Below, one piece after another: positions 51,453 to 64,000 of a stretch of 64,000 bases of DNA; positions within the stretch are counted from its first letter, which is position 1, and each line of letters opens with the position of its first letter. Made by a program: the position numbers and the translations under genes. The notes beneath the pieces were generated by a model. The model did not search any database. It worked only from the letters and a program-made list of their open reading frames with translations, and was not told where the DNA came from. The stretch is from Escherichia coli (GTDB lineage: Bacteria; Pseudomonadota; Gammaproteobacteria; Enterobacterales; Enterobacteriaceae), in assembly GCF_003018115.1 (NCBI RefSeq), contig NZ_CP027457.1; one strand, written 5' to 3'.

Positions 51453-51878
51453 ATGGAACAGAAAATATTATCCTCAGAACCCCGCAGATCATTTTCAAAT
51501 GAGTTTAAACTTCAAATGGTTAAACTGGCTTCACAACCAGGAGCCTCTGTTGCCCGTATTGCCCGGGAACACGATATCAATGATAACCTCCTGTTCAAAT
51601 GGCTCAGGCTCTGGCAGAACGAAGGGCGTATATCGCGGCGTCTTCCGGTAACAATCTCTTCTGGCGCTGGCGTTGAATTATTACCTGTTGAGATAACGCC
51701 TGATGAGCAGAAAGAGCCTATGGCGGCTCTTACTCCGCTTTTATCCACTCCTTCACAAAGCACAGTCAGTGCCAGTTCCTGTAAAGTTGAGTTCCGCCAC
51801 GGTAACATGACGCTGGAAAATCCTTCACCAGAGCTGCTCACGGTGTTGATCCGTGAACTGACCGGGAGGGGACGATGA
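51453..51878 (+). CDS. IS66 accessory protein TnpA (orf1)
   Basis: 141-aa ORF with HTH-like N-terminus; 4-nt overlap with orf2. Confidence 0.85.
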   Translation: MEQKILSSEPRRSFSNEFKLQMVKLASQPGASVARIAREHDINDNLLFKWLRLWQNEGRISRRLPVTISSGAGVELLPVEITPDEQKEPMAALTPLLSTPSQSTVSASSCKVEFRHGNMTLENPSPELLTVLIRELTGRGR

Positions 51879-52225
51879 TCTCGCTCCCATCAGGTACCCG
51901 TATCTGGCTCGTTGCCGGCGTTACCGATATGCGTAAATCCTTCAACGGACTGGGAGAACAGGTACAACATGTGCTGAATGATAATCCCTTCTCCGGTCAC
52001 CTGTTTATCTTCCGTGGCCGACGGGGTGACACCGTCAAAATTCTTTGGGCTGATGCTGATGGTCTGTGCCTGTTCACCAAACGCCTGGAGGAAGGCCAGT
52101 TTATCTGGCCTGCGGTACGTGACGGCAAGGTATCCATTACCCGCTCGCAACTGGCAATGCTCCTCGATAAGCTGGACTGGCGTCAGCCAAAAACATCCAG
52201 CCGTAACTCACTGACAATGTTGTAA
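51875..52225 (+). CDS. IS66 Orf2 (TnpB)
   Basis: 116 aa MISLPSGTRIWLVAGVTDMRKSFNGLGEQVQHVL..., a typical IS66 Orf2. Confidence 0.88.
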   Translation: MISLPSGTRIWLVAGVTDMRKSFNGLGEQVQHVLNDNPFSGHLFIFRGRRGDTVKILWADADGLCLFTKRLEEGQFIWPAVRDGKVSITRSQLAMLLDKLDWRQPKTSSRNSLTML

Positions 52226-52255
52226 AAAACTCCTGACCGCATTATAAAAACGGTC

Positions 52256-53869
52256 ATGAGTCAGAAATACCTCATTCGCATCGCAGAGCTGGAAAGATTG
52301 CTCTCTGAGCAGGCTGAAGCCCTCCGTCAGAAAGACCAGCAACTGAGTCTGGTTGAAGAGACGGAAGCCTTCCTGCGCTCTGCACTGACACGTGCCGAAG
52401 AAAAGATCGAAGAAGATGAACGGGAAATAGAACATCTGCGGGCTCAGATAGAAAAACTGCGCCGGATGCTGTTCGGTACCCGTTCTGAAAAACTGCGTCG
52501 TGAAGTTGAACTGGCTGAGGCTCTGCTGAAACAACGTGAACAGGACAGCGATCGTTACAGTGGGCGGGAAGACGATCCTCAGGTTCCCCGCCAGTTGCGA
52601 CAGTCGCGCCATCGTCGTCCGTTACCGGCACACCTTCCCCGTGAAATACACCGCCTGGAGCCAGAAGAAAGCTGTTGCCCGGAGTGTGGCGGTGAACTGG
52701 ATTATCTGGGGGAAGTCAGCGCTGAACAGCTGGAACTGGTGAGCAGTGCCCTGAAAGTGATCCGCACAGAACGGGTAAAAAAAGCCTGTACAAAATGTGA
52801 CTGTATTGTTGAAGCACCGGCGCCGTCCCGCCCGATAGAGCGTGGTATCGCGGGCCCCGGATTACTTGCCCGCGTGTTAACGGGAAAATACTGCGAACAT
52901 CTGCCACTGTATCGTCAGAGTGAAATCTTTGCCCGCCAGGGTGTCGAACTGAGCCGGGCCTTACTCTCCAACTGGGTTGACGCGTGCTGCCAGTTAATGA
53001 CACCGGTGAATGATACCCTGTACCGTTATGTAATGAACACCCGCAAGGTTCACACTGATGACACACCGGTAAAGGTACTGGCACCGGGTCAGAAAAAGGC
53101 GAAAACAGGGCGTATCTGGACGTATGTCCGGGATGATCGCAATGTGGGTTCGTCATCTCCTCCAGCGGTCTGGTTCGCGTACTCGCCGAACCGGCAGGGG
53201 AAACACCCGGAGCAACACCTCCGCCCCTTCCGGGGTATCCTGCAGGCGGATGCGTTCACAGGTTACGACAGGTTGTTCAGTGCAGAACGTGAAGGTGGTG
53301 CACTGACAGAAGTTGCGTGCTGGGCCCATGCCCGGCGAAAAATCCACGATGTATACATCAGCAGCAAAAGTGCGACGGCAGAAGAAGCCCTGAAGCGAAT
53401 CAGTGAACTGTACGCCATCGAGGATGAAATACGGGGATTACCGGAGTCAGAGCGTCTTGCCGTCAGGCAGCAGCGAAGCAAAGTGTTACTGACGTCGCTG
53501 CATGAATGGATGGTGGAGAAGAATGGTACGCTGTCGAAAAAATCCAGACTGGGCGAAGCGTTCAGCTATGTACTGAATCAGTGGGATGCCCTCTGTTATT
53601 ACAGTGATGACGGTCTGGCGGAGGCGGATAATAATGCTGCGGAAAGAGCGCTTCGTGCAGTCTGTCTCGGAAAGAAAAACTTTATGTTCTTTGGCAGCGA
53701 TCACGGCGGCGAGCGTGGAGCACTGTTGTACGGGCTGATCGGCACCTGCCGTCTGAACGGTATCGATCCGGAAGCGTATCTGCGCCATATCCTGAGCGTA
53801 CTGCCGGAATGGCCTTCCAACCGAGTTGATGAACTCCTGCCATGGAACGTAGTACTCACCAATAAATAA
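52256..53869 (+). CDS. IS66-family DDE transposase (orf3)
   Basis: 537 aa with N-terminal coiled coil, CPECG zinc motif and DDE core. Confidence 0.9.
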   Translation: MSQKYLIRIAELERLLSEQAEALRQKDQQLSLVEETEAFLRSALTRAEEKIEEDEREIEHLRAQIEKLRRMLFGTRSEKLRREVELAEALLKQREQDSDRYSGREDDPQVPRQLRQSRHRRPLPAHLPREIHRLEPEESCCPECGGELDYLGEVSAEQLELVSSALKVIRTERVKKACTKCDCIVEAPAPSRPIERGIAGPGLLARVLTGKYCEHLPLYRQSEIFARQGVELSRALLSNWVDACCQLMTPVNDTLYRYVMNTRKVHTDDTPVKVLAPGQKKAKTGRIWTYVRDDRNVGSSSPPAVWFAYSPNRQGKHPEQHLRPFRGILQADAFTGYDRLFSAEREGGALTEVACWAHARRKIHDVYISSKSATAEEALKRISELYAIEDEIRGLPESERLAVRQQRSKVLLTSLHEWMVEKNGTLSKKSRLGEAFSYVLNQWDALCYYSDDGLAEADNNAAERALRAVCLGKKNFMFFGSDHGGERGALLYGLIGTCRLNGIDPEAYLRHILSVLPEWPSNRVDELLPWNVVLTNK

Positions 53870-53909: not shown

Positions 53910-54284
53910 CTATTTCTTGATTCCTAAACGGAACATATCAGTTGGGAATAAAGGTTGTATTATCACTTCATCATTAAAAATGAATAATTTGGGCGATAAA
54001 GCTGTTACGTCATAGATATTTTCAGCGATTAATCTTAGATTTGACCTAAAAACTGGAATACTTGCATCATCTGCAAAGACAAACATGTCATCGTTTTTTA
54101 CAGAGTTTGCACACAATAGCTCATCAAAACTCTCATAATCAGAATGCCAGATCTCTGACCAAGTAACACTTCCTTTCGCGAGAGGGTACTTATTTAAAAT
54201 GCCCAGAGCCTCCTGCTGAGCCAGCCCCTCTACTATATTAAAATCAGCACTCAGTGCTTCCCGACACTCATCAAATAAAGTCAT
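53910..54284 (-). CDS. CdiI-type immunity protein, orphan module 4
   Basis: 124-aa AT-rich ORF 5 nt downstream of the orphan toxin stop; its stop is 10 nt from the IS66 end. Confidence 0.7.
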   Translation of the reverse strand: MTLFDECREALSADFNIVEGLAQQEALGILNKYPLAKGSVTWSEIWHSDYESFDELLCANSVKNDDMFVFADDASIPVFRSNLRLIAENIYDVTALSPKLFIFNDEVIIQPLFPTDMFRLGIKK

Positions 54285-54289
54285 TTGCT

Positions 54290-55657
54290 CTACCTGTTTA
54301 GCTGTTTCAATATTGTTTCAAAAGACTTTTCATTGCCTTCAAAAGGTATGACTTGCTTCACCGCTTTTCCAGGGCCTTTACCCTGCGAGTAATCCCATAT
54401 ATTGATGTGTGTGCCTTTTTCAGGATCATAATCAACACGCCAACCAACTTTTCCGTCGCTGGATTGCCGCCCTATGACTTTCCCATTACCAGCGCTGACT
54501 TCCAAACGTCCGATAACTGGCTTAGAGTCCGCTCCTAAATTACCTACAAGATCCAATGCCTTGTTTCGAGCAGTTTCCCAGTTTTTCTCTGGCTTGAGGA
54601 TTTGTTCAATTTTAGGCTGGGAATTCCCTTTAACCTTACTAATTCCCCCAAATGCTGACGCCGCAGCGCTCGCGACTATTCCCGCCTGAACTTCATCCAA
54701 ACCGTATTCTTCTTGGAGTGCTTCCGAGACTTTGTTGGTCGCGACAACCCCTTCAGCCTGCATTTGCTGCGCAAAAGTCGCCGTCAGATCGTAGACCATT
54801 TTGATCGGGATATCTTCACCCAGAGCACGATCTATTGCCTGCTTCACCGCCAGACTGTCAGTCAGTACATCACCGTATTTCTGCTGGCAGGTTGCCGGGC
54901 TGGCTGCACAGTCACTGATCAGTTGCTTTTGCTGTGCCGTACTCAACTCTTCGTACTTTTTGATAATACCGCCGCAGTCACCGCCTTTCGCCTGACAGGA
55001 CTTCATTTCAGCGGACCAAGCATCTATCTGCTTACTGCTCAGATAGTTATTCTCAACAGCATTCTTCCCGCTTTGTGCTCCCACTGCTGCTGATGCGGTG
55101 CTGTTTCCGGTAAGACCTCCGGCCAGCCCTGCTGACACGGTTGCCAGCGTACTTATCGTTTGCTTCTGCTCTTCACTGAGGTCTGACTGTTTCACGCCCG
55201 GATACAGCATGCCGGCAATCGCTCTGACTGCCAGCTCTCCCGTTGCTGCGCCTGCTGCACCGGCAGCAACATTATTACCCTGCATTGCCGCCACTGCGCC
55301 GCCCAAAATGGCGTGAGCAATGGCGTTTACTGCCGGGTCTTTTTCTGTTGATTTCAGCAGGTGCGCCAGTTCCGGAGCCGAAGTTCCGGCCAGAGCACCC
55401 GCTAAATTACCCCCCGCCAGCCCCTGAAGCGCGGCCTGGATACCCCGCTGAATTTCACTGCCGGTACCATACTTCGCCATTTCATCCCTGTAAGCCTGCG
55501 TGTCACGCAGTTTTGCCAGATATGCCTGCCGCTGCTCTTCCGTCGCATCCGCCGGAACAGGCCCATATTTATCCTGCGCAGCCTTCAACGCATTCAGTTC
55601 CCCCTGCGTCCGCGCAATATCAGCCACCTGACTGCCTATGTCACTGATAAGCCCCAC
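54290..55657 (-). CDS. orphan cdiA-CT module 4 (pretoxin remnant + VENN + toxin domain)
   Basis: VENN encoded at 55046-55057 ([11 protein letters not shown]); about 200 aa upstream resembles the resident cdiA pre-VENN region; homology extends to about 55705 ([12 protein letters not shown]) beyond the first ATG. Confidence 0.8.
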
Positions 55658-55742: not shown

Positions 55743-56006
55743 CTATTTGATTTTGCTTAAAATATTATTGACTATCGGTATTACAGAACTAACCAATTGC
55801 TCTTCCTCAACTGTATACAAAAGCAATTCGATCTCATTCTCCGCATTAAATAACATTGTATGGAGCCACTTTTCCTCAACAGCAACAATTTGGCTTTCCG
55901 CAGCATAAATTTCTGATTGAATACTTTGTACCGTTATTTTCCCTTCAAGAAAGTTTTTACAAGAGTGTTGTAACCTCTCGATCACCTCAGGATAAATCCA
56001 ACTCAT
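55743..56006 (-). CDS. CdiI-type immunity protein, orphan module 3
   Basis: 87-aa AT-rich ORF overlapping the toxin stop by 4 nt. Confidence 0.65.
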   Translation of the reverse strand: MSWIYPEVIERLQHSCKNFLEGKITVQSIQSEIYAAESQIVAVEEKWLHTMLFNAENEIELLLYTVEEEQLVSSVIPIVNNILSKIK

Positions 56007-56737
56007 TGCCCACTCCTGCGAAGAATAGTAACAATAATATTACTGTTATTTTCAGTGACTACACCTACGTCACCACTCCAATAAGTCGTTCTAGTTACGC
56101 CATTAACGACACTATTTTGAGGAGTTCCTTCTTTGATAACACTTTCAACCATATTCGGCGTTATATTTCTCCCTGGGCCAACTGTGCCGGCTGGAGAACC
56201 AGATGGCTGCATTCTATCAACAGCATGTTGTGAATACAAACGATGACCTATTTGTGCATATTGTCGCCCATCTACTGTAACCTTTCGATAATTTTGCCAA
56301 GAGTCCCAAGGTAACTTTTCAGAACTATTAGGTACGTTTTCTGATGAGGTTTTCTCATTACGTTGCTCTATTGATTCATTATTCCTGGCGTTCTCCTCAT
56401 CCTGCGGCTCCCATCCCCCCGGTGTTCCAGCACCTGCGCCACCAAGCTCAGCTTTCTCCTTGTCCGTAGCGCTCGCTACGTCTTTGCCCAGATTCGGCTG
56501 TTTGTTTTCGTCTGTATTGTCGCCATTCAGCACATACCCCGGCCCCCGGGCACCATCGCGACTCGGATCACGTACAGCACACTGTTCCCGTGAGCCTTCA
56601 CAACCACCACCGGTATCCCAGCTATTATCATTCCCGGTATCCTTACTGGCATTACCTGTAGCACCAGCTATTGCTGCTGCCGTATTAGCTGCTGTTTCAG
56701 TGGCTATCACGTTCAGCATATTGTTTTCAGCAACAAC
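56003..56737 (-). CDS. orphan cdiA-CT module 3 (AENN variant; DUF4258/RelE-fold-like C-terminus)
   Basis: Frame opens IVVAENN-MLNV...; C-terminus ...YSQHAVDRMQPSG...GRNITPNMVESVIKEG...VTILRR resembles my recollection of DUF4258-type RNase toxins. Confidence 0.65.
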   Translation of the reverse strand, partial: VVAENNMLNVIATETAANTAAAIAGATGNASKDTGNDNSWDTGGGCEGSREQCAVRDPSRDGARGPGYVLNGDNTDENKQPNLGKDVASATDKEKAELGGAGAGTPGGWEPQDEENARNNESIEQRNEKTSSENVPNSSEKLPWDSWQNYRKVTVDGRQYAQIGHRLYSQHAVDRMQPSGSPAGTVGPGRNITPNMVESVIKEGTPQNSVVNGVTRTTYWSGDVGVVTENNSNIIVTILRRSGQ

Positions 56738-56955
56738 TATTTACGATAGTATCTTCGCATTTGTAGATAGAGTTGTAACCAAATCCCAGCACCTCCCCAT
56801 AAGCCAACTACTGCGCCAATTATTCCGTATTTTACATACACCTCAGAAGGTATTGGTTCCCGAGCTATAAGCCAGATACTAACCACTATTCCAATAGAGC
56901 AAGTAGCTATAGATATAAGTAACAACTTAATAAGAAGTAGTAGATGTTTTTTCAT
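56737..56955 (-). CDS. small two-TM immunity protein, orphan module 2
   Basis: 72 aa with two hydrophobic helices (LLLLIKLLLISIATCSIGIVVSIWLIA; IIGAVVGLWGGAGIWLQLYL). Confidence 0.7.
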   Translation of the reverse strand: MKKHLLLLIKLLLISIATCSIGIVVSIWLIAREPIPSEVYVKYGIIGAVVGLWGGAGIWLQLYLQMRRYYRK

Positions 56956-57860
56956 TTTTTGTCTCCATCAACTTCTTTTTGCGTTGCGCTGCTTGCACCT
57001 TCTGATACGAATGAACCAACAAATCCACCAAATGTTCCTGGTATAGAGCTCATTTGGCCGCCTTGATACATACCGTATCCGATAGACTTTTCCGAATATT
57101 GCAGTGAATATTTACTGGCGTCCATTCCCAGTTGATTTTTGATGTATTGAGCTTCTAACTTATTAGTAATTGAAGCCCCAATGTTATAGCCAAGGCCTGT
57201 ACCAGCCATGCTACCCACTACTGATGCGGTACTGTCCTGGCCTTCAATCTGGCTGCTCATGTAAGCGCTACCGGCACCCAACAACTGATTAGCGTAATAT
57301 CCTTTCCCGGCTGTACCTACACCAGTCAAGCCTGACATCATGAAACTGAGATAATCGAACTTATCACCGATATTTCCCGTACCAATTTGTACCGCACCAT
57401 TAGCCCCATAGCTCAGCCCGGCACTGACAAATTTTTCAGTCAGCGTGGCTGATGATGTTAACAATGAACCCGCTCCGGCAACCGTACCCCAGTAATTTTC
57501 CGGTTCCCCGAAGAAAGCCAGAGCCTTATCACCTTTCGATGTGTTGTTGTTCAGATAGTTCAGGTCATAGCTGTTACTTTCAGTGACGTAGTTCTTCACG
57601 TCCTGGTTTTCCAGCGAACCATACAACCAGCCAGGCCGACCTGCCGCGCTGAGTCCGCCCTCAATATTCCATTTATCTTCCCCGGACAGAGCCGTCAGAG
57701 GATCTGTGGCCACATCAATGTGTAATTTCTGTCGGTGCTCTGCGCTTATTACAGCATATTTATTCTGAATATCGCCGCAGTCTCCACCCACTTTACGACA
57801 GGCCGTCATTTCTCTGTCAAAAGCATGCGCCTCGTCGTAGCTGAGGTAGTTATTCTCAAC
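56952..57860 (-). CDS. orphan cdiA-CT module 2 (Gly-rich, probably membrane-active toxin)
   Basis: VENN at 57849-57860 (ERVVVENNYLS); first ATG only at 57809; C-terminal half is G/A/S-rich and hydrophobic. Confidence 0.7.
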   Translation of the reverse strand, partial: VENNYLSYDEAHAFDREMTACRKVGGDCGDIQNKYAVISAEHRQKLHIDVATDPLTALSGEDKWNIEGGLSAAGRPGWLYGSLENQDVKNYVTESNSYDLNYLNNNTSKGDKALAFFGEPENYWGTVAGAGSLLTSSATLTEKFVSAGLSYGANGAVQIGTGNIGDKFDYLSFMMSGLTGVGTAGKGYYANQLLGAGSAYMSSQIEGQDSTASVVGSMAGTGLGYNIGASITNKLEAQYIKNQLGMDASKYSLQYSEKSIGYGMYQGGQMSSIPGTFGGFVGSFVSEGASSATQKEVDGDKK

Positions 57861-58173: not shown

Positions 58174-58467
58174 TTAACTGTCGGGCTCTCCTTTTTTATT
58201 ATTTTTATAATCAATCATCAAGTTATTCACCTCATTCCATAGTTGCTCATCGTTAAATTCGTATTCTTCACGATCATTATCTGGGTTGTACATATCAGCC
58301 ACACAGAAGACACTGGATAATAATTCACTTAGATTATCATTATCTTGCTTAAGTAGGTTACTATCACGCTCACCCTTCCACTTCGCCATATAAGTGTCGG
58401 TAAAATATTCAGCCGATATATTCTTAGCAAGAAAATCATCAATGTATTTTTTAAGAGACTGACTCAT
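58174..58467 (-). CDS. colicin-D-immunity-like protein, orphan module 1
   Basis: 97-aa acidic ORF overlapping the toxin stop; ...YMAKWKGERDSN...FCVADMYNPDNDREEYEFNDEQL resembles recalled ImmD-type immunity proteins. Confidence 0.65.
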   Translation of the reverse strand: MSQSLKKYIDDFLAKNISAEYFTDTYMAKWKGERDSNLLKQDNDNLSELLSSVFCVADMYNPDNDREEYEFNDEQLWNEVNNLMIDYKNNKKGEPDS

Positions 58468-59219
58468 CTTAATGTCCCGTTATTTATGAAGTTTTCATAT
58501 TGCTTCGTTTGAGGATCAAGCTTCCACCCACTAACAAAATTACCAGATTTATCAATTACAACCACATTATTAGTTTGTGGATTGAAGAACACCTTTGATT
58601 CTGGAATTAATAGGTATGTCCCATGTTCATAAGTCGTCTTATTATCTAAATGTGATTTGATGGCAGCCTGATATTCTGCAATGGTATCACTATTTTTCTT
58701 AGTTGTTATTACGCCAAAATCAGAAGCATGTTTAAATTTCTTATCTAACTGTTTTGCGCTGAAAGCGACACTATCAGAGACGATTGTAGCTCCAGCATTT
58801 GGAATTTTCTTCCCTGGAAGTATAAGGCTAGCCAGTATTCCGCCAGTTGCTTCCAGCGCAGCCTGGTTCCCTCCATACGCTTGTTTCACATTCTCTGCTA
58901 CTGCTGACCAGGTTTCACTTTGCATCAGCGCTTTAACGCTGTCTGCCACTGCCTGATTTTTACCCGCCAAATCACTCAGTGCTTTATCACAATAGCTTTC
59001 GCCGGTTGCACATGAGGCGAGCGCCATTGCCGCATCACCCACATAATCGGCTGAGCCTATTGCCGTATCACCGGAGTCAGCGATGACATTAATAATGCCG
59101 TTGGCAATAGCCGATGAGGCTCCGTCTCCCAGCTTATCCCTGACCTGTGTTTTCCACCATTCAGCACTTTGTTTGACCGATTCCCTGGCCTTATCACCCG
59201 CCAGCGAGTTATTCTCAAC
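58464..59219 (-). CDS. orphan cdiA-CT module 1 (colicin D-like tRNase domain)
   Basis: VENN at 59208-59219 (MSERVVVENNSL); C-terminus contains QLDKKFKHASDFGV, which I recall as the colicin D nuclease-domain signature. Confidence 0.7.
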   Translation of the reverse strand, partial: VENNSLAGDKARESVKQSAEWWKTQVRDKLGDGASSAIANGIINVIADSGDTAIGSADYVGDAAMALASCATGESYCDKALSDLAGKNQAVADSVKALMQSETWSAVAENVKQAYGGNQAALEATGGILASLILPGKKIPNAGATIVSDSVAFSAKQLDKKFKHASDFGVITTKKNSDTIAEYQAAIKSHLDNKTTYEHGTYLLIPESKVFFNPQTNNVVVIDKSGNFVSGWKLDPQTKQYENFINNGTLR

Positions 59220-59438
59220 AACAACTCTTTCCGACATAAGTTGCTGCGATGAACCCGGATTCTCCCTGCATTTTCCGTTAGTTACAGCCGATTTTCCCTG
59301 TTGTACTTCCTGCCCGCCAACTTTTTGTGCTGTTAAGCGTTTCTGGCCCCGCAGACGCTACCGCCCCGCCGTGACGCGCCACCATCATATAAGCAAACTA
59401 CAGCACCACTTAGGATGGTGGTGTCTTGGATTTATATT

Positions 59439-59822
59439 TCAATTAAGAAGTTCCTTTGATACGTTACCAGTATCAAAAAACTCTTTTAAGATCTTTACAA
59501 TAAGTTCACAGTCTTTTGTAAGCTGAGATTCCGGCCAGTAATCACCAAGAATCACCATTTTTGTATCAGGTTTAGATGAGTCCCAGTACGTTCTTACTTG
59601 GTATTCATCTTCAAAAATTTCACCTAATGTTATCAAGTAATAACCATTCTCCGTTCTGATCTGAAGCATTTCAGCGCTATTATCGCCACTGTTCTGTATA
59701 TCAAGAGTAAGTGTTCCTTTTTTTCCCTGAATTAGTTTAAACTGATTTAATACCATGTCCCAATTTGAGATCTGTTTATTGCCACCTGTTTCGCCCAGTG
59801 TCCAACTCACTTTAAAATTCAT
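59439..59822 (-). CDS. cdiI: CdiI immunity protein of the resident cdiA
   Basis: 127-aa AT-rich ORF starting 1 nt after the cdiA stop codon. Confidence 0.8.
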   Translation of the reverse strand: MNFKVSWTLGETGGNKQISNWDMVLNQFKLIQGKKGTLTLDIQNSGDNSAEMLQIRTENGYYLITLGEIFEDEYQVRTYWDSSKPDTKMVILGDYWPESQLTKDCELIVKILKEFFDTGNVSKELLN

Positions 59823-59823
59823 T

Positions 59824-62800
59824 TTAATCCCTAACCTTGAGAGATTTCATGCCAGGCTGCCAGTAGAGGACTGATCCTGTAGCCTCTTCATAAATTGTTA
59901 AAGATTTTAGCCCCGCTTTATCAGCCATGGCTGCTATATCACCGCGGCAATAACCACATACAGGCTCTTTAGATACACTCATTGTCATCTCACGCCCTTG
60001 AGACATACCCTTTTCAAAAGCTTGCTGTATAACACCTACTTCAGCATGAGCTGTAGCCATATTGCCGTTAGGAAGAGGCTTGTTTTGCTTATCTATTTTA
60101 GCTTGGATTCGTCCATCAATGAGTGTTGGCTTATTCACATCTGCTAAGTTGGAAGGCCTTGCACCCTGATTAGTATCAGTAAACTTAGCTCCATCAACAT
60201 TACCTTTCGCTACGACCTTAAGATTAGCATCAACGATTTTACTTAATTGTTTTGCCGCAGCAGAACCCAAAATTGGTGTCACCGAAGCCGCAATGCTCTC
60301 CAGACCCTGCTTTGTTTCGGTGTAGCTTTCTGCGGTCTGACGATCCACCCCTTTGGTGACCATGAAATAGTTAATCATGGCGTCTTTCACCTGTTGCTGA
60401 TTCTGTGCATCAACACTGGTGATATCGAGGAGATTGACCATCTGACCATACGCATCAGCGTATTGCTGGCTGTATTTCGAGTTATAAGGGCCATCTTCGT
60501 ACCCTTCTTTCGACGCAATAACTTTCAGTCTTGCGCTGGCACACGCTGAACTACCCGCATTACCATTACCGCAGGCAGCAATAACCTCCTTATCACTGGC
60601 AATATCTTTCTCACGCAGAGCATTATATTTCTGTTGCGCCTTTTCGCGCTCTGCCGGATCTTTACTATTTTTAAGCGTCTGTTTTGCTATCTCAAGCTCT
60701 GTCTTTTCAGACACGCTAAGATAGTTATTCTCAACCGCGTTCCTGCCTGCCTGTGCCCCCGTACCGGCAGACGCCGTACTGTTGCCTGCAAGCCCGCCCG
60801 CAATACCTGAGGCAATGGTGGCCAACATGCTGATTTGCTGACGTTCCTGTTCACTCAGGTTATCAGTACGACCACCATAGTAGTTATCAATGATATACCG
60901 GGCTGCAAGTTCACCGCTGAATGCCCCTGCAGCACCGGAAGCCGCATTGTTTCCGCCCAGTTGTGCGGCAAGCGCTCCCCAGACTGCGTGAGCCATCAGG
61001 TTTGCTTCCCGGTTATCGCCGGTGGCCTGTTTTATAAGCTGTGCCACTGCCGGATTCAGACCGCCAGCCAGTATCTGCCCCGGATTCCCTGCATTCAGTC
61101 CGCCCAGCACACCCGTGATGGCCTGTACCACCATCTGCGGCGTACTGCCCGTACCGTAGCCTTTCATGACCTCTCTGTATTCCGGGGTCTCCCGCAACTG
61201 TGCATCGCTCATGCCAGGATGCTCTTTCCTGGCTGCTTTCATCGCTTCAGTTTCGCCATACGTCATGACGATGTTACTCATCTGACCGCTAATCTGGCTG
61301 ATAACCTGCGCTTCCTGCAGACGCTTCTGCTCTTTCTCCCTGTCAAATATCGGTGCAATGCTGCCGTTGGCGTTTTCCGGGTCCCGGCTGAGCCCGGCAA
61401 TATCCTGCTTCTGACTCTCATTATCACGGATAATGAGATTTCCGCCGCTGATGGCGGATGACGTGGTACCTTCAGCATGTCCACTGCTGCCGGACATACC
61501 GGTAAGTGCGTTCGCCGCACCGGCTATTGCATTTGAGGCCACCATCTGGCTGGCTGACATCCCTGAGCCACCCGATAAACTGATTCCGGTATGGCTGGCT
61601 TTATAGTCTGCCTGGTTATGGATATCCGACCAGCCCAGCGTATTGGTATTGAGGCTGTTTTTGTCATCCGTTGCCGTGGACGCAATTACCGCACCATTGA
61701 GCTGAGTGTGATTCCCAACAGTGACATCAAACCCGTCTTTTCCGGCGTAGATACCACTCTGTTCCCGGACAGAATCGTAATTGCTTTTAATTTTGTCCTG
61801 ACTGATGCTGGCATAGCCGCTGCCGGACATTGAGCCAAACGTGAAGCTTCCACCTGCAGCCACGCTGTTCTGTCTGCTGTCGTAACGGTCACTGTCCTGA
61901 AGGCTCGAAATGGTCAGGTTGTTGCCGACATCTGCTGTGACTTTCTCGCCACTGACCTGAGCCCCCGACAGGGTGGTATCACGTCCGCTTGTGAGGGAGA
62001 CATTTTTACCCGCATCCAGCGTGGTTTCGGTCCAGGTCGTGCCGTTGCCTTTCTCCCTGCCCTCTGAACCATTGATACCGGCGAAGATACTGAGGCCTCC
62101 GCCATTGGTTCCACCACCAAAGCTGACGCCCACGCCGCCACCTTTGCTGCTGTTCTTCCCGGTTGTCTGTCGGGTGTCAGCGGCGGCAGCCAGCAGAATA
62201 TCGTTCTGTGCATTCAGGCTGGTGTCATTGCCGGACTTAATCTGGCTCCCGGTAATGAGAATATCGCCGCTGTTGTTATGGTCCTTATTTTTCCCCGTGG
62301 CAGTGACAGAGACATTGTTACCGGCGCTGAGGGTTGAGCCGGAGACGATATCGTGCTGATATTTCGTCTCAGACTTCGACTGCTGATGGTTGAGCGAAAT
62401 GCTCACGCCGATACCATTATTCGGGTCAGCACTCTGTTGCTGCAGTCCGTGGTTAACACCGGCCTGTACACCAGACAGAACCGCCTGTGTTCCTTTCAGT
62501 GCCGCCAGACGGCTGTCGCTGGTTTCTTTCGCCTCCCGGGCCATGGTGGCAGCATTATTGATGGCACTGCCCACTGTGCCGGAAAGGGCAACCGTCAGCC
62601 CGCTTTTCTTCTGCTCAAATTTTTCGTCCACAGTACGACGGTCATGCCCCGGGTCAACCACCACACTGTCACCGGTAATGCTGATATCCCGGTTCGCAAT
62701 CACATCCGAACCGCTGATATGAGCCTGTTTGCCCGCGGTAATACTGACATTACCAGCAGTGGAGCCGATGGTGCTGGCACTCTGACTCTGCGTTGTCCCG

Positions 62801-64000
62801 GCCTCGCGGCGGTCGTGCGTTGTCTTACTGCTGCCAGTGGTGAAACCAATACCGCCGGTACCCGTCAGACCGGATTTCTTCGTTTCCTTAAAGCGCCAGG
62901 ACGTATCTGTACTGGTGGCAGCAAGAACATCAACATGGTTATCCGCCGCCAGTGACACATCCCAGTCAGCCACCACATCCGAACCCTGTACCGTCAGGTT
63001 ATTACCGGCGTTAACGGTCACGCGGTTTCCCGACAGCAGGGAGCCCTTCTCACGGGTGACGCTGTCTTCCGTGATGGTCCGGGTGGTCTGATGGCTGAGG
63101 AGACGGTTACGGGTTTCCCCTGATTCACTGTAGTGATAATCACTTTCCGTGGCAGTACCCAGTACGATGTCATGACCGGCATTCACACGGATATCGCCCT
63201 TTGCCGTTACAGCGGTCGCAACTGAGGTGATATCCCGTCCGGCAGTAACCGTAATGTCACCGCCACTGGTCATGTCTGTTCCCTGCTGCCGGACCGAATC
63301 ATGAACCGTCTTCATGCTGAAAGTGCTGTCGTGGTCACCTGCGCCTGTGGACTCCGCAGCCATGTTCACATCCCGTCCGGCGCGGATAGCCATACTGTTT
63401 TCAGCCGTAATACCGGCAGCCTGGCTGTTCACATCACGACCGGCGGAAAGCATCAGACTGTTCCCGGCAGTGACCGTGGGGGCCACGGCATGAGTTTCAT
63501 ACCACCCGGACCCGCCATAGCGACGACGTTCTCCGGCCTGTATCGCGTTCATGTTCAGGTCATTACCGGCGGACAGTAACACGCTGTCACCGGCAGAAAC
63601 GGCGGCACCGGTGATACTGATATCCCCGGCTGCGCCCATAAACAGTGAGTCCGTTGCCCTGACAGCAGCCAGCGGACCGGTATCCGTTCCGCTGAAATGG
63701 TTATATCCGTTGTTCATCGCCCACTGTTCTGTCCGGGTGAGGTTACTGATGTTTCCGGTGGCGCTTTCCAGGGATACGGTTTTACCGCTGATGACTGAGC
63801 TGATATTGCCGATATCCCCGATGGCCTTCAGGTTCAGTGCACCACCGGCGTTTATCAGTCCGGCATTCAGGTTGTCGATACTACCTGTGCTGTCGAGCAG
63901 GAGGTCATTCTGTGCGTTGATGCTGCCGCCGCTGTTGGTGATATTGCCACCCGCAAGCTGCACGTTGTTCCCGCTGATAACGCTGCCATTATGAAGGGTG
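59824..64000 (-). CDS. cdiA: CdiA contact-dependent inhibition exoprotein, C-terminal about 1390 codons (5' end outside window)
   Basis: Frame open to the window edge; filamentous-haemagglutinin-type repeats, pretoxin region, VENN at 60724-60735, then a 303-aa CT. Confidence 0.93.

Follow-up and report, generated by a model that had tools for sequence, protein, structure and literature searches.

Which toxin does the resident CdiA at the end of this stretch of Escherichia coli DNA deliver into neighbouring cells, and on what would it act? The stretch (64,000 nucleotides of contig NZ_CP027457.1, hereafter the window) carries the 3' part of a cdiA gene of a contact-dependent inhibition (CDI) system, followed by a small gene, cdiI. 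A first-pass annotation of the letters had proposed that the C-terminal region (CT) of this CdiA ends in a deaminase-type domain. The analysis bears this out: the domain matches a Pfam deaminase family, its HxE and CxxC motifs are conserved and an immunity gene is linked to it, and the locus very probably encodes a CDI-delivered deaminase toxin that is neutralised by CdiI.

The C-terminal 131 residues of the CT match PF24241 (Deam_C, described in Pfam as 'putative cytidine deaminase C-terminal domain') with an E-value of 1.2e-51 and 174.7 bits, against a cut-off of 27 bits, over profile positions 4-134 of 136. The two motifs are set out in Table 1; Glu232 and Pro258 are 26 residues apart, as the first-pass annotation had counted, and 27 intervening residues separate Glu232 from Cys260. 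Its positions for VENN, HAE and Pro-Val-Cys-Gly-Tyr-Cys (59947-59964) are likewise those obtained by minus-strand translation. One detail needed correction: the signature that it wrote as PCxxC is P-V-C-x-x-C. The CT, which ends ...SLKVRD, is 303 residues long when counted from the V of VENN, so that 299 residues come after the motif.

A database search gave 74 homologues of the deaminase domain. In an alignment of 31 homologues both cysteines are invariant and the His and Glu (H65 and E67 in domain numbering) nearly so, together with about 30 other nearly invariant positions that include NQxARP, PTLI and LPNGNM upstream of HAE. Searched with a profile, 1.84 billion representatives yielded 355 clusters at E<=1e-3, the long members of which are two-partner secretion (TPS), haemagglutinin-repeat, PT-VENN CdiA proteins. 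When one genome per species was scanned, 80 loci with the domain were found, spanning Enterobacterales, Pseudomonas, Pasteurellaceae, Xanthomonas, Burkholderiales, alphaproteobacteria and Neisseria. Judged from the Pfam match and the conservation in the 31 homologues, the deaminase motif is far beyond what chance would produce.

The AlphaFold2 model of the domain (predicted local distance difference test score, pLDDT, 94.7) has the order beta-alpha-beta-alpha(HAE)-beta-alpha(CxxC)-beta-beta, in which strands 4 and 5 form a hairpin and helix 4 is missing. HAE and CxxC both lie at helix starts, and the model has the three-layer alpha/beta/alpha fold of deaminases. Its topology is the one found in the C-terminal-hairpin division of the deaminases and not in the TadA/APOBEC-like helix-4 division. 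The top ten structural matches are all deaminases, none of them close; among the matches are PPR-DYW (9.8), DddB (8.4), TOD6 (7.8), cytidine deaminase (7.4), blasticidin-S deaminase (7.1), SsdA (6.9), DddA (6.8) and APOBEC3H (6.7). Foldseek agrees weakly with these deaminase matches, and the predicted fold is thus compatible with a deaminase, a point on which the first-pass annotation had staked its proposal. Searching the sequences of the PDB with the deaminase yielded only the entry-domain match 6VEK in the single-sequence search and nothing in the profile search; the domain appears to be without any solved close relative.

To which deaminases does the domain belong? N. gonorrhoeae and N. 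viridiae carry a homologous domain at the C-terminus of MafB that is 51% identical to that of the window, which places the latter in the MafB-type clade and not with DddA/SCP1.201. The resemblance to DddA that the first-pass annotation noted therefore holds for the deaminase fold, and for the DddI-like fold predicted for the immunity protein, but not for the clade; no SCP1.201/DddA family match (PF14428) was obtained in the Pfam scan of the CT. Neisseria MafB matches PF06255 at 1e-126 and PF24241 at 9e-63, and one such deaminase (locus L070, 1068-2408) was observed to score 210 bits on PF24241 and 24 bits on PF14437 (MafB19-deam; cut-off 27). Since MafB carries PF24241 and falls under the cut-off on PF14437, PF24241 is the family to which the real Neisseria MafB deaminase belongs, and the Pfam name 'MafB19-deam' is mismatched with its biological prototype. 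The window protein is only marginally related to PF14437: the isolated CT scores 29.7 bits against the cut-off of 27, over the core only (profile positions 45-112 of 142), the longer cdiA fragment 26.4 bits, and close relatives 17.6, 24 and 26.5 bits. PF00383 reaches 22.9 bits on the CT, which is under the cut-off, and NCBIfam gave no match for the toxin and none for the immunity protein.

From the Neisseria MafB match we infer that PF24241 is equivalent to the clade that Iyer et al. 2011 called 'MafB19'. The signature of that clade is an N at the end of strand 2, HxE, a V at the end of strand 3, basic-xxCxxC, a G at the start of strand 4 and a C-terminal hairpin (PMC3239186). The window protein has the N before HxE, the V ending strand 3 and the G starting strand 4 (AGLKSL); its basic residue is at C-4, and in most homologues it is at C-3 (GKxVC). 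A preprint from New England Biolabs (NEB) distinguishes Iyer's MafB19 profile from Pfam PF14437 (10.1101/2023.06.29.547047), a remark that fits the proposed correspondence. BaDTF3 was considered as a home for the domain and rejected, being Pput_2613-like.

The domain is carried by a CDI system. On the minus strand the cdiA frame has no stop from 64000 down to the TAA at 59824-59826, and the next open reading frame (ORF) starts with the ATG at 59822, 1 nt past the stop, and ends at 59439; the cdiI of 127 residues had thus been described correctly. The cdiA of the window matches that of E. coli 2014C-4135 (NZ_CP027310.1) base for base (100% identical), and in that record the full-length gene encodes 3225 residues (locus L001, 12386-22063) and a ShlB/FhaC/HecB-family cdiB lies upstream of it, outside the window; both genes are intact. 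Pfam finds Fil_haemagg_2 (1e-60), PT-VENN, DUF6862 and Deam_C on the cdiA fragment of the window. The locus therefore has the haemagglutinin-repeat CdiA, the cdiB (in the identical genome), the PT-VENN domain and the small downstream immunity gene of a CDI system. The G+C content was seen to fall stepwise along 59439-63963, from 0.56 in the cdiA body to 0.46 in the entry domain, 0.43 in the deaminase and 0.35 in cdiI, which is consistent with horizontally exchanged cassettes of CT and immunity gene. The RefSeq/PGAP product name of this cdiA (59824-64000; L001 12386-22063) is 'contact-dependent inhibition effector tRNA nuclease'; for an allele with a deaminase toxin domain this generic name is misleading.

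Between VENN and the deaminase lies the domain by which the toxin would reach the cytoplasm. In a phmmer search, CT residues 1-166 matched PDB entry 6VEK (CdiA-CT EC3006) with an E-value of 7e-70; identity is 71% in an ungapped comparison and 90% over the first 50 residues, the first 19 of which, including VENNY, are identical. The same segment is a match to Pfam DUF6862. PtsG-dependent entry domains, which start at VENN-Tyr, are those of EC3006, NC101 and STEC_O31. Import by the EC3006 entry domain requires PtsG as well as the proton gradient and follows exact cleavage at VENN, and delta-ptsG target cells resist EC3006 (PMC9424206). From the 71% identity to this characterised domain, the CT of the window probably uses PtsG as well.

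The evidence for an immunity function of CdiI comes from its family and its gene position. CdiI matches Pfam DUF6911 at 1.7e-38 and is acidic (isoelectric point 4.6, versus 8.9 for the basic toxin domain). Using hidden Markov models built from the alignments of this analysis, a DUF6911 homologue was detected directly 3' of the deaminase and on the same strand in 77 of the 80 species loci, and also after the deaminase in orphan modules of Acetobacter and Xenorhabdus. In the remaining three loci, L047 (Hahella sp.), L076 (Pseudomonas brassicae) and L079 (Fluctibacter corallii), no DUF6911 homologue was detected downstream; these may have another immunity family or be degraded. The CdiI sequence finds PDB entry 6ANZ with E-values of 1e-4 (single protein) and 7e-10 (profile). 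6ANZ is annotated as an 'uncharacterized protein' of N. gonorrhoeae, and the literature search found no paper on DUF6911 or mentioning 6ANZ. The protein encoded downstream of the Neisseria MafB deaminase is identical to 6ANZ over 101 comparable residues. As an observation on the Neisseria loci, the gene immediately 3' of the MafB deaminase (L068 692-1000 in N. gonorrhoeae DSM 9188; L070 2489-2800 in N. viridiae) matches DUF6911 at 4e-43. Being encoded next to a MafB PF24241 deaminase, 6ANZ, until now an orphan crystal structure, is a MafI-type deaminase immunity protein. The fold predicted for CdiI is of the DddI type, and the DUF6911 family as a whole is predicted to share the DddI fold.

Taken together, these data suggest the following course of events, to which we assign a probability of about 0.6 with DNA as the substrate included. 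CdiA would bind a neighbouring E. coli cell and the CT would be released at VENN into the periplasm, from where the entry domain of 166 residues would cross the inner membrane by way of PtsG, the glucose transporter, and of the proton gradient. It would thereby deliver a zinc deaminase of ~135 residues, in which His230, Cys260 and Cys263 are predicted to hold the zinc and Glu232 to act as the proton shuttle; catalytic activity is predicted from the conserved motifs. The most likely substrate would be cytosine in chromosomal DNA, which would be converted to uracil; excision of the uracil would lead to abasic sites, breaks and replication arrest, and survivors would carry C-to-T mutations. In the producing cell CdiI would bind the toxin and, by analogy with DddI, plug its active site, so that the producer would be protected.

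DNA is favoured as the substrate by analogy with published assays on families of deaminases. In the NEB screen, MafB19 in Iyer's sense is one of the five families that gave nearly all enzymes active on DNA in vitro; its members, one of which is named EcDa01, tend to prefer a Cg context (10.1101/2023.06.29.547047). Huang et al. reported activity on single-stranded DNA (ssDNA) for the MafB19 clade defined by PF14437 (10.1101/2023.05.21.541555), to which the window domain is marginally related. For DddA and SsdA the uracil lesions are lethal and survivors are mutagenised (PMC7901873). Several points weigh against the proposed chain of events. The link to the 'MafB19' enzymes of NEB consists of the family name and the presumed identity of Iyer's MafB19 with PF24241; the use of PtsG is extrapolated from a domain that is 71% identical; the zinc site is a predicted one. 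In the searchable literature no experiment was found on the window protein or on any CT of the E. coli class tabulated as type 17, which is compared below.

The first alternative is that the toxin is an RNA cytidine deaminase, which would edit tRNA, rRNA or mRNA of the target and corrupt translation rather than DNA. Most of the characterised CDI toxins of E. coli hit tRNA (PMC11630599), and in the NEB screen four of the five active families listed had one or more members whose RNA activity exceeded that of APOBEC3A, the four not being specified. The best structural match, PPR-DYW, is itself an RNA editor; however, SsdA is DYW-like yet acts on ssDNA (PMC7901873), and DYW likeness is thus no predictor of RNA use. 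The window domain, moreover, does not belong with the DYW/SsdA-like deaminases: it has no SGW motif, no PG box, none of the DYW hallmarks (C-terminal DYW, second CxC zinc site) and no Pfam DYW match. Members of the family that bears the MafB19 name scored as active on DNA, and we regard an RNA-editing toxin as a real though less likely alternative.

The other three readings are unlikely. A deaminase of free nucleotides or nucleosides (dCTP/CTP or cytidine, for example) would poison the target by depletion or imbalance of its pools. E. coli has Cdd and Dcd, so that cytidine deamination alone should not be toxic. The structural matches to deaminases of this kind are weaker than those to nucleic-acid deaminases, the family is almost confined to the tips of polymorphic toxins that have an immunity partner of their own, and the literature search turned up no interbacterial toxin that deaminates the nucleotide pool; this reading has little to commend it. 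Still less probable is a TadA-type adenosine deaminase that acts on adenines of tRNA or DNA. HAE is the TadA-type helix-2 motif, and one homologue from the Joint Genome Institute (P0019) is automatically named 'tRNA(Arg) A34 adenosine deaminase TadA', but in the model strands 4 and 5 form a hairpin and helix 4 is absent, which is the other division in the classification of PMC3239186. TadA is also a weaker structural match than DYW, DddB and cytidine deaminase, and neither NCBIfam nor Pfam makes a TadA-type assignment; the candidate was rejected on its C-terminal hairpin. Least probable is a decayed or non-catalytic remnant that is no working toxin or kills by binding: related E. coli copies can follow a disrupted cdiA (for example the frameshifted cdiA of strain M19) and the exact CdiI is on 171 contigs against 26 for the exact CdiA, but cdiB, full-length cdiA and cdiI are all intact, the catalytic residues and ~30 positions are kept over 355 representative clusters and 80 species, and retention of the immunity gene in 77 of 80 loci implies a toxic partner.

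Should the activity predicted for the toxin be confirmed, it would be the first characterised CDI-delivered deaminase toxin in E. coli. CDI could then mutagenise neighbours as well as kill them, as has been shown for the type VI-delivered DddA and SsdA, with a bearing on diversification in the gut and on the evolution of resistance. A small domain with a matched inhibitor is also a candidate tool enzyme. More speculative, and on balance not expected, is the combination of a compact (~135 residues) DNA deaminase of useful specificity (CpG preference, equal use of single- and double-stranded DNA), or else the first CDI-delivered RNA-editing toxin, with an ancient immunity fold common to the distantly related SCP1.201 and MafB-type deaminases. 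If this were true, the compact deaminase would offer a scaffold for base editing and methylome mapping distinct from DddA, SsdA and DddB and provided with a DddI-like inhibitor.

Table 1. Features of the cdiA-cdiI locus, in window coordinates.
Feature	Position	Strand	Remarks
cdiA, 3' part	59824..64000	(-)	last 1391 codons + stop; gene runs past window
PT-VENN pre-toxin domain	60715..60864	(-)	PF04829, E 2.4e-19; ends in VENN
VENN motif, start of variable CdiA-CT	60724-60735	(-)	read directly
Cytoplasm-entry domain, putative PtsG-dependent class, CT residues 1-166	60238..60735	(-)	match to 6VEK; DUF6862
Deaminase toxin domain, CT residues 171-301	59833..60225	(-)	Pfam Deam_C, MafB-type clade
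His230-Ala-Glu232, predicted zinc ligand (His) and catalytic proton-shuttle Glu	60040..60048	(-)	start of helix 2
Cys260-Gly-Tyr-Cys263, two predicted Cys zinc ligands	59947..59958	(-)	start of helix 3
cdiI, 127-residue acidic immunity protein (DUF6911), predicted DddI-like fold	59439..59822	(-)	

The allele of the window is rare. Of 5426 complete E. coli genomes, 3 carry the full CT together with cdiI, and related alleles occur in roughly twenty more E. coli genomes; blastn with the deaminase DNA alone reached at least 11 of the 5426 genomes and missed the M8-type allele, which was reached by megablast extension from the entry domain. E. coli has at least two other alleles of the deaminase CT. 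The M8-type allele (E. coli M8, L002 3579-4960) has the same PtsG-type entry domain, a deaminase that is ~73% identical and a DUF6911 immunity protein that is 38% identical. The M19-type allele (E. coli M19, L085 2110-3560) has another entry domain (VENNLLSPEKDD...), preceded by a frameshifted cdiA, and this pairing of a similar deaminase with an unlike entry domain shows modular exchange. Contigs with the exact CdiI (59442-59822) numbered 171 and those with a 99% variant 166; the exact full-length CdiA (L001 12389-22063) was on only 26. The spread of the immunity gene may be wider than that of the toxin allele, whether it occurs as an orphan or alongside cdiA backbones of other kinds.

Further modules lie beyond cdiI. 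Directly after it, an orphan toxin-immunity module (58174-59260, minus strand) contains an ORF of 257 residues in which a remnant of VENN (MSERVVVENNSLAG...) is joined by a colicin D tRNase domain (PF11429, 2e-17), followed by a colicin-type immunity protein of 97 residues (PF09204, 1e-20). At 55743-57809 (minus strand) the orphan array holds two more ORF pairs (56952-57809 with 56737-56955, and 56003-56719 with 55743-56006). Neither pair has a Pfam match at E<=0.001, and RefSeq labels the 238-residue protein 'DUF4258 domain-containing'; both may encode toxins with their immunity proteins, as yet uncharacterised. Next to a CdiI_ImmP immunity gene (53910-54284; PF24172, 5e-34) lies a cdiA fragment, truncated but with PT-VENN (54290-55657), and this pair abuts IS66-family elements (51453-53869; ISEc23 and others in RefSeq), which suggests that insertion sequences delimit the orphan array or interrupt it.

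How does the system compare with those already known? CdiA-CT EC3006 (6VEK) has the same VENN and a PtsG-dependent entry domain, 166 residues long and 71% identical, but carries a BECR-fold tRNase and an unrelated CdiI in place of the deaminase. Neisseria MafB/MafI (6ANZ) is of the same PF24241 family, with a 51% identical deaminase and the same order of toxin and then immunity gene; it differs in that the deaminase is attached to a PF06255 N-terminal domain and not to a TPS CdiA, and VENN and the PtsG entry domain are absent. DddA-DddI of Burkholderia cenocepacia (BaDTF1, an SCP1.201-like deaminase of double-stranded DNA; 6U08) is delivered by type VI secretion and not by CDI. The specificity of DddA for double-stranded DNA and 5'-TC is not to be assumed for the toxin of the window, and CdiI and DddI have no detectable sequence similarity. 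SsdA (BaDTF2, DYW-like) has the SGW motif that the window toxin lacks and an all-helical immunity protein, SsdAI, and DddB (BaDTF3, Pput_2613-like) has a GFP helix-hairpin-helix element that is likewise absent here; immunity and delivery are different for both.

The closest counterpart is in E. coli itself. Table 2 of the Hayes laboratory lists a CdiA-CT 'type 17: MafB19 deaminase, PtsG entry, uncharacterized', predicted to be a cytosine deaminase (PMC11630599), with the PtsG-entry STEC 2573 (WP_077879060.1) and the SecY-entry 696_ECOL as examples (PMC11630599). Compared by this tabulated description, species, delivery system, PtsG entry class and predicted cytosine deaminase are all the same; type 17 is annotated with PF14437 in PMC11630599, whereas the strong match of the window protein is to PF24241. 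CDI-linked deaminases had been predicted in 2011-2012 and were listed for Pseudomonas, and in RefSeq related fragments go by the name 'cytidine deaminase-like fold-containing protein', while the neighbour is entered as 'DUF6911 family protein'. The deaminase toxin is therefore a correct reading of the window but one already known as a prediction from the literature, Pfam and RefSeq, and the novelty implied by the first-pass annotation was overstated. What the present analysis adds is the assignment to PF24241 rather than PF14437, the DddI-like fold predicted for the immunity protein, and 6ANZ as the MafI-type partner of a MafB deaminase; the toxin itself is almost certainly of the same type as E. 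coli type 17.

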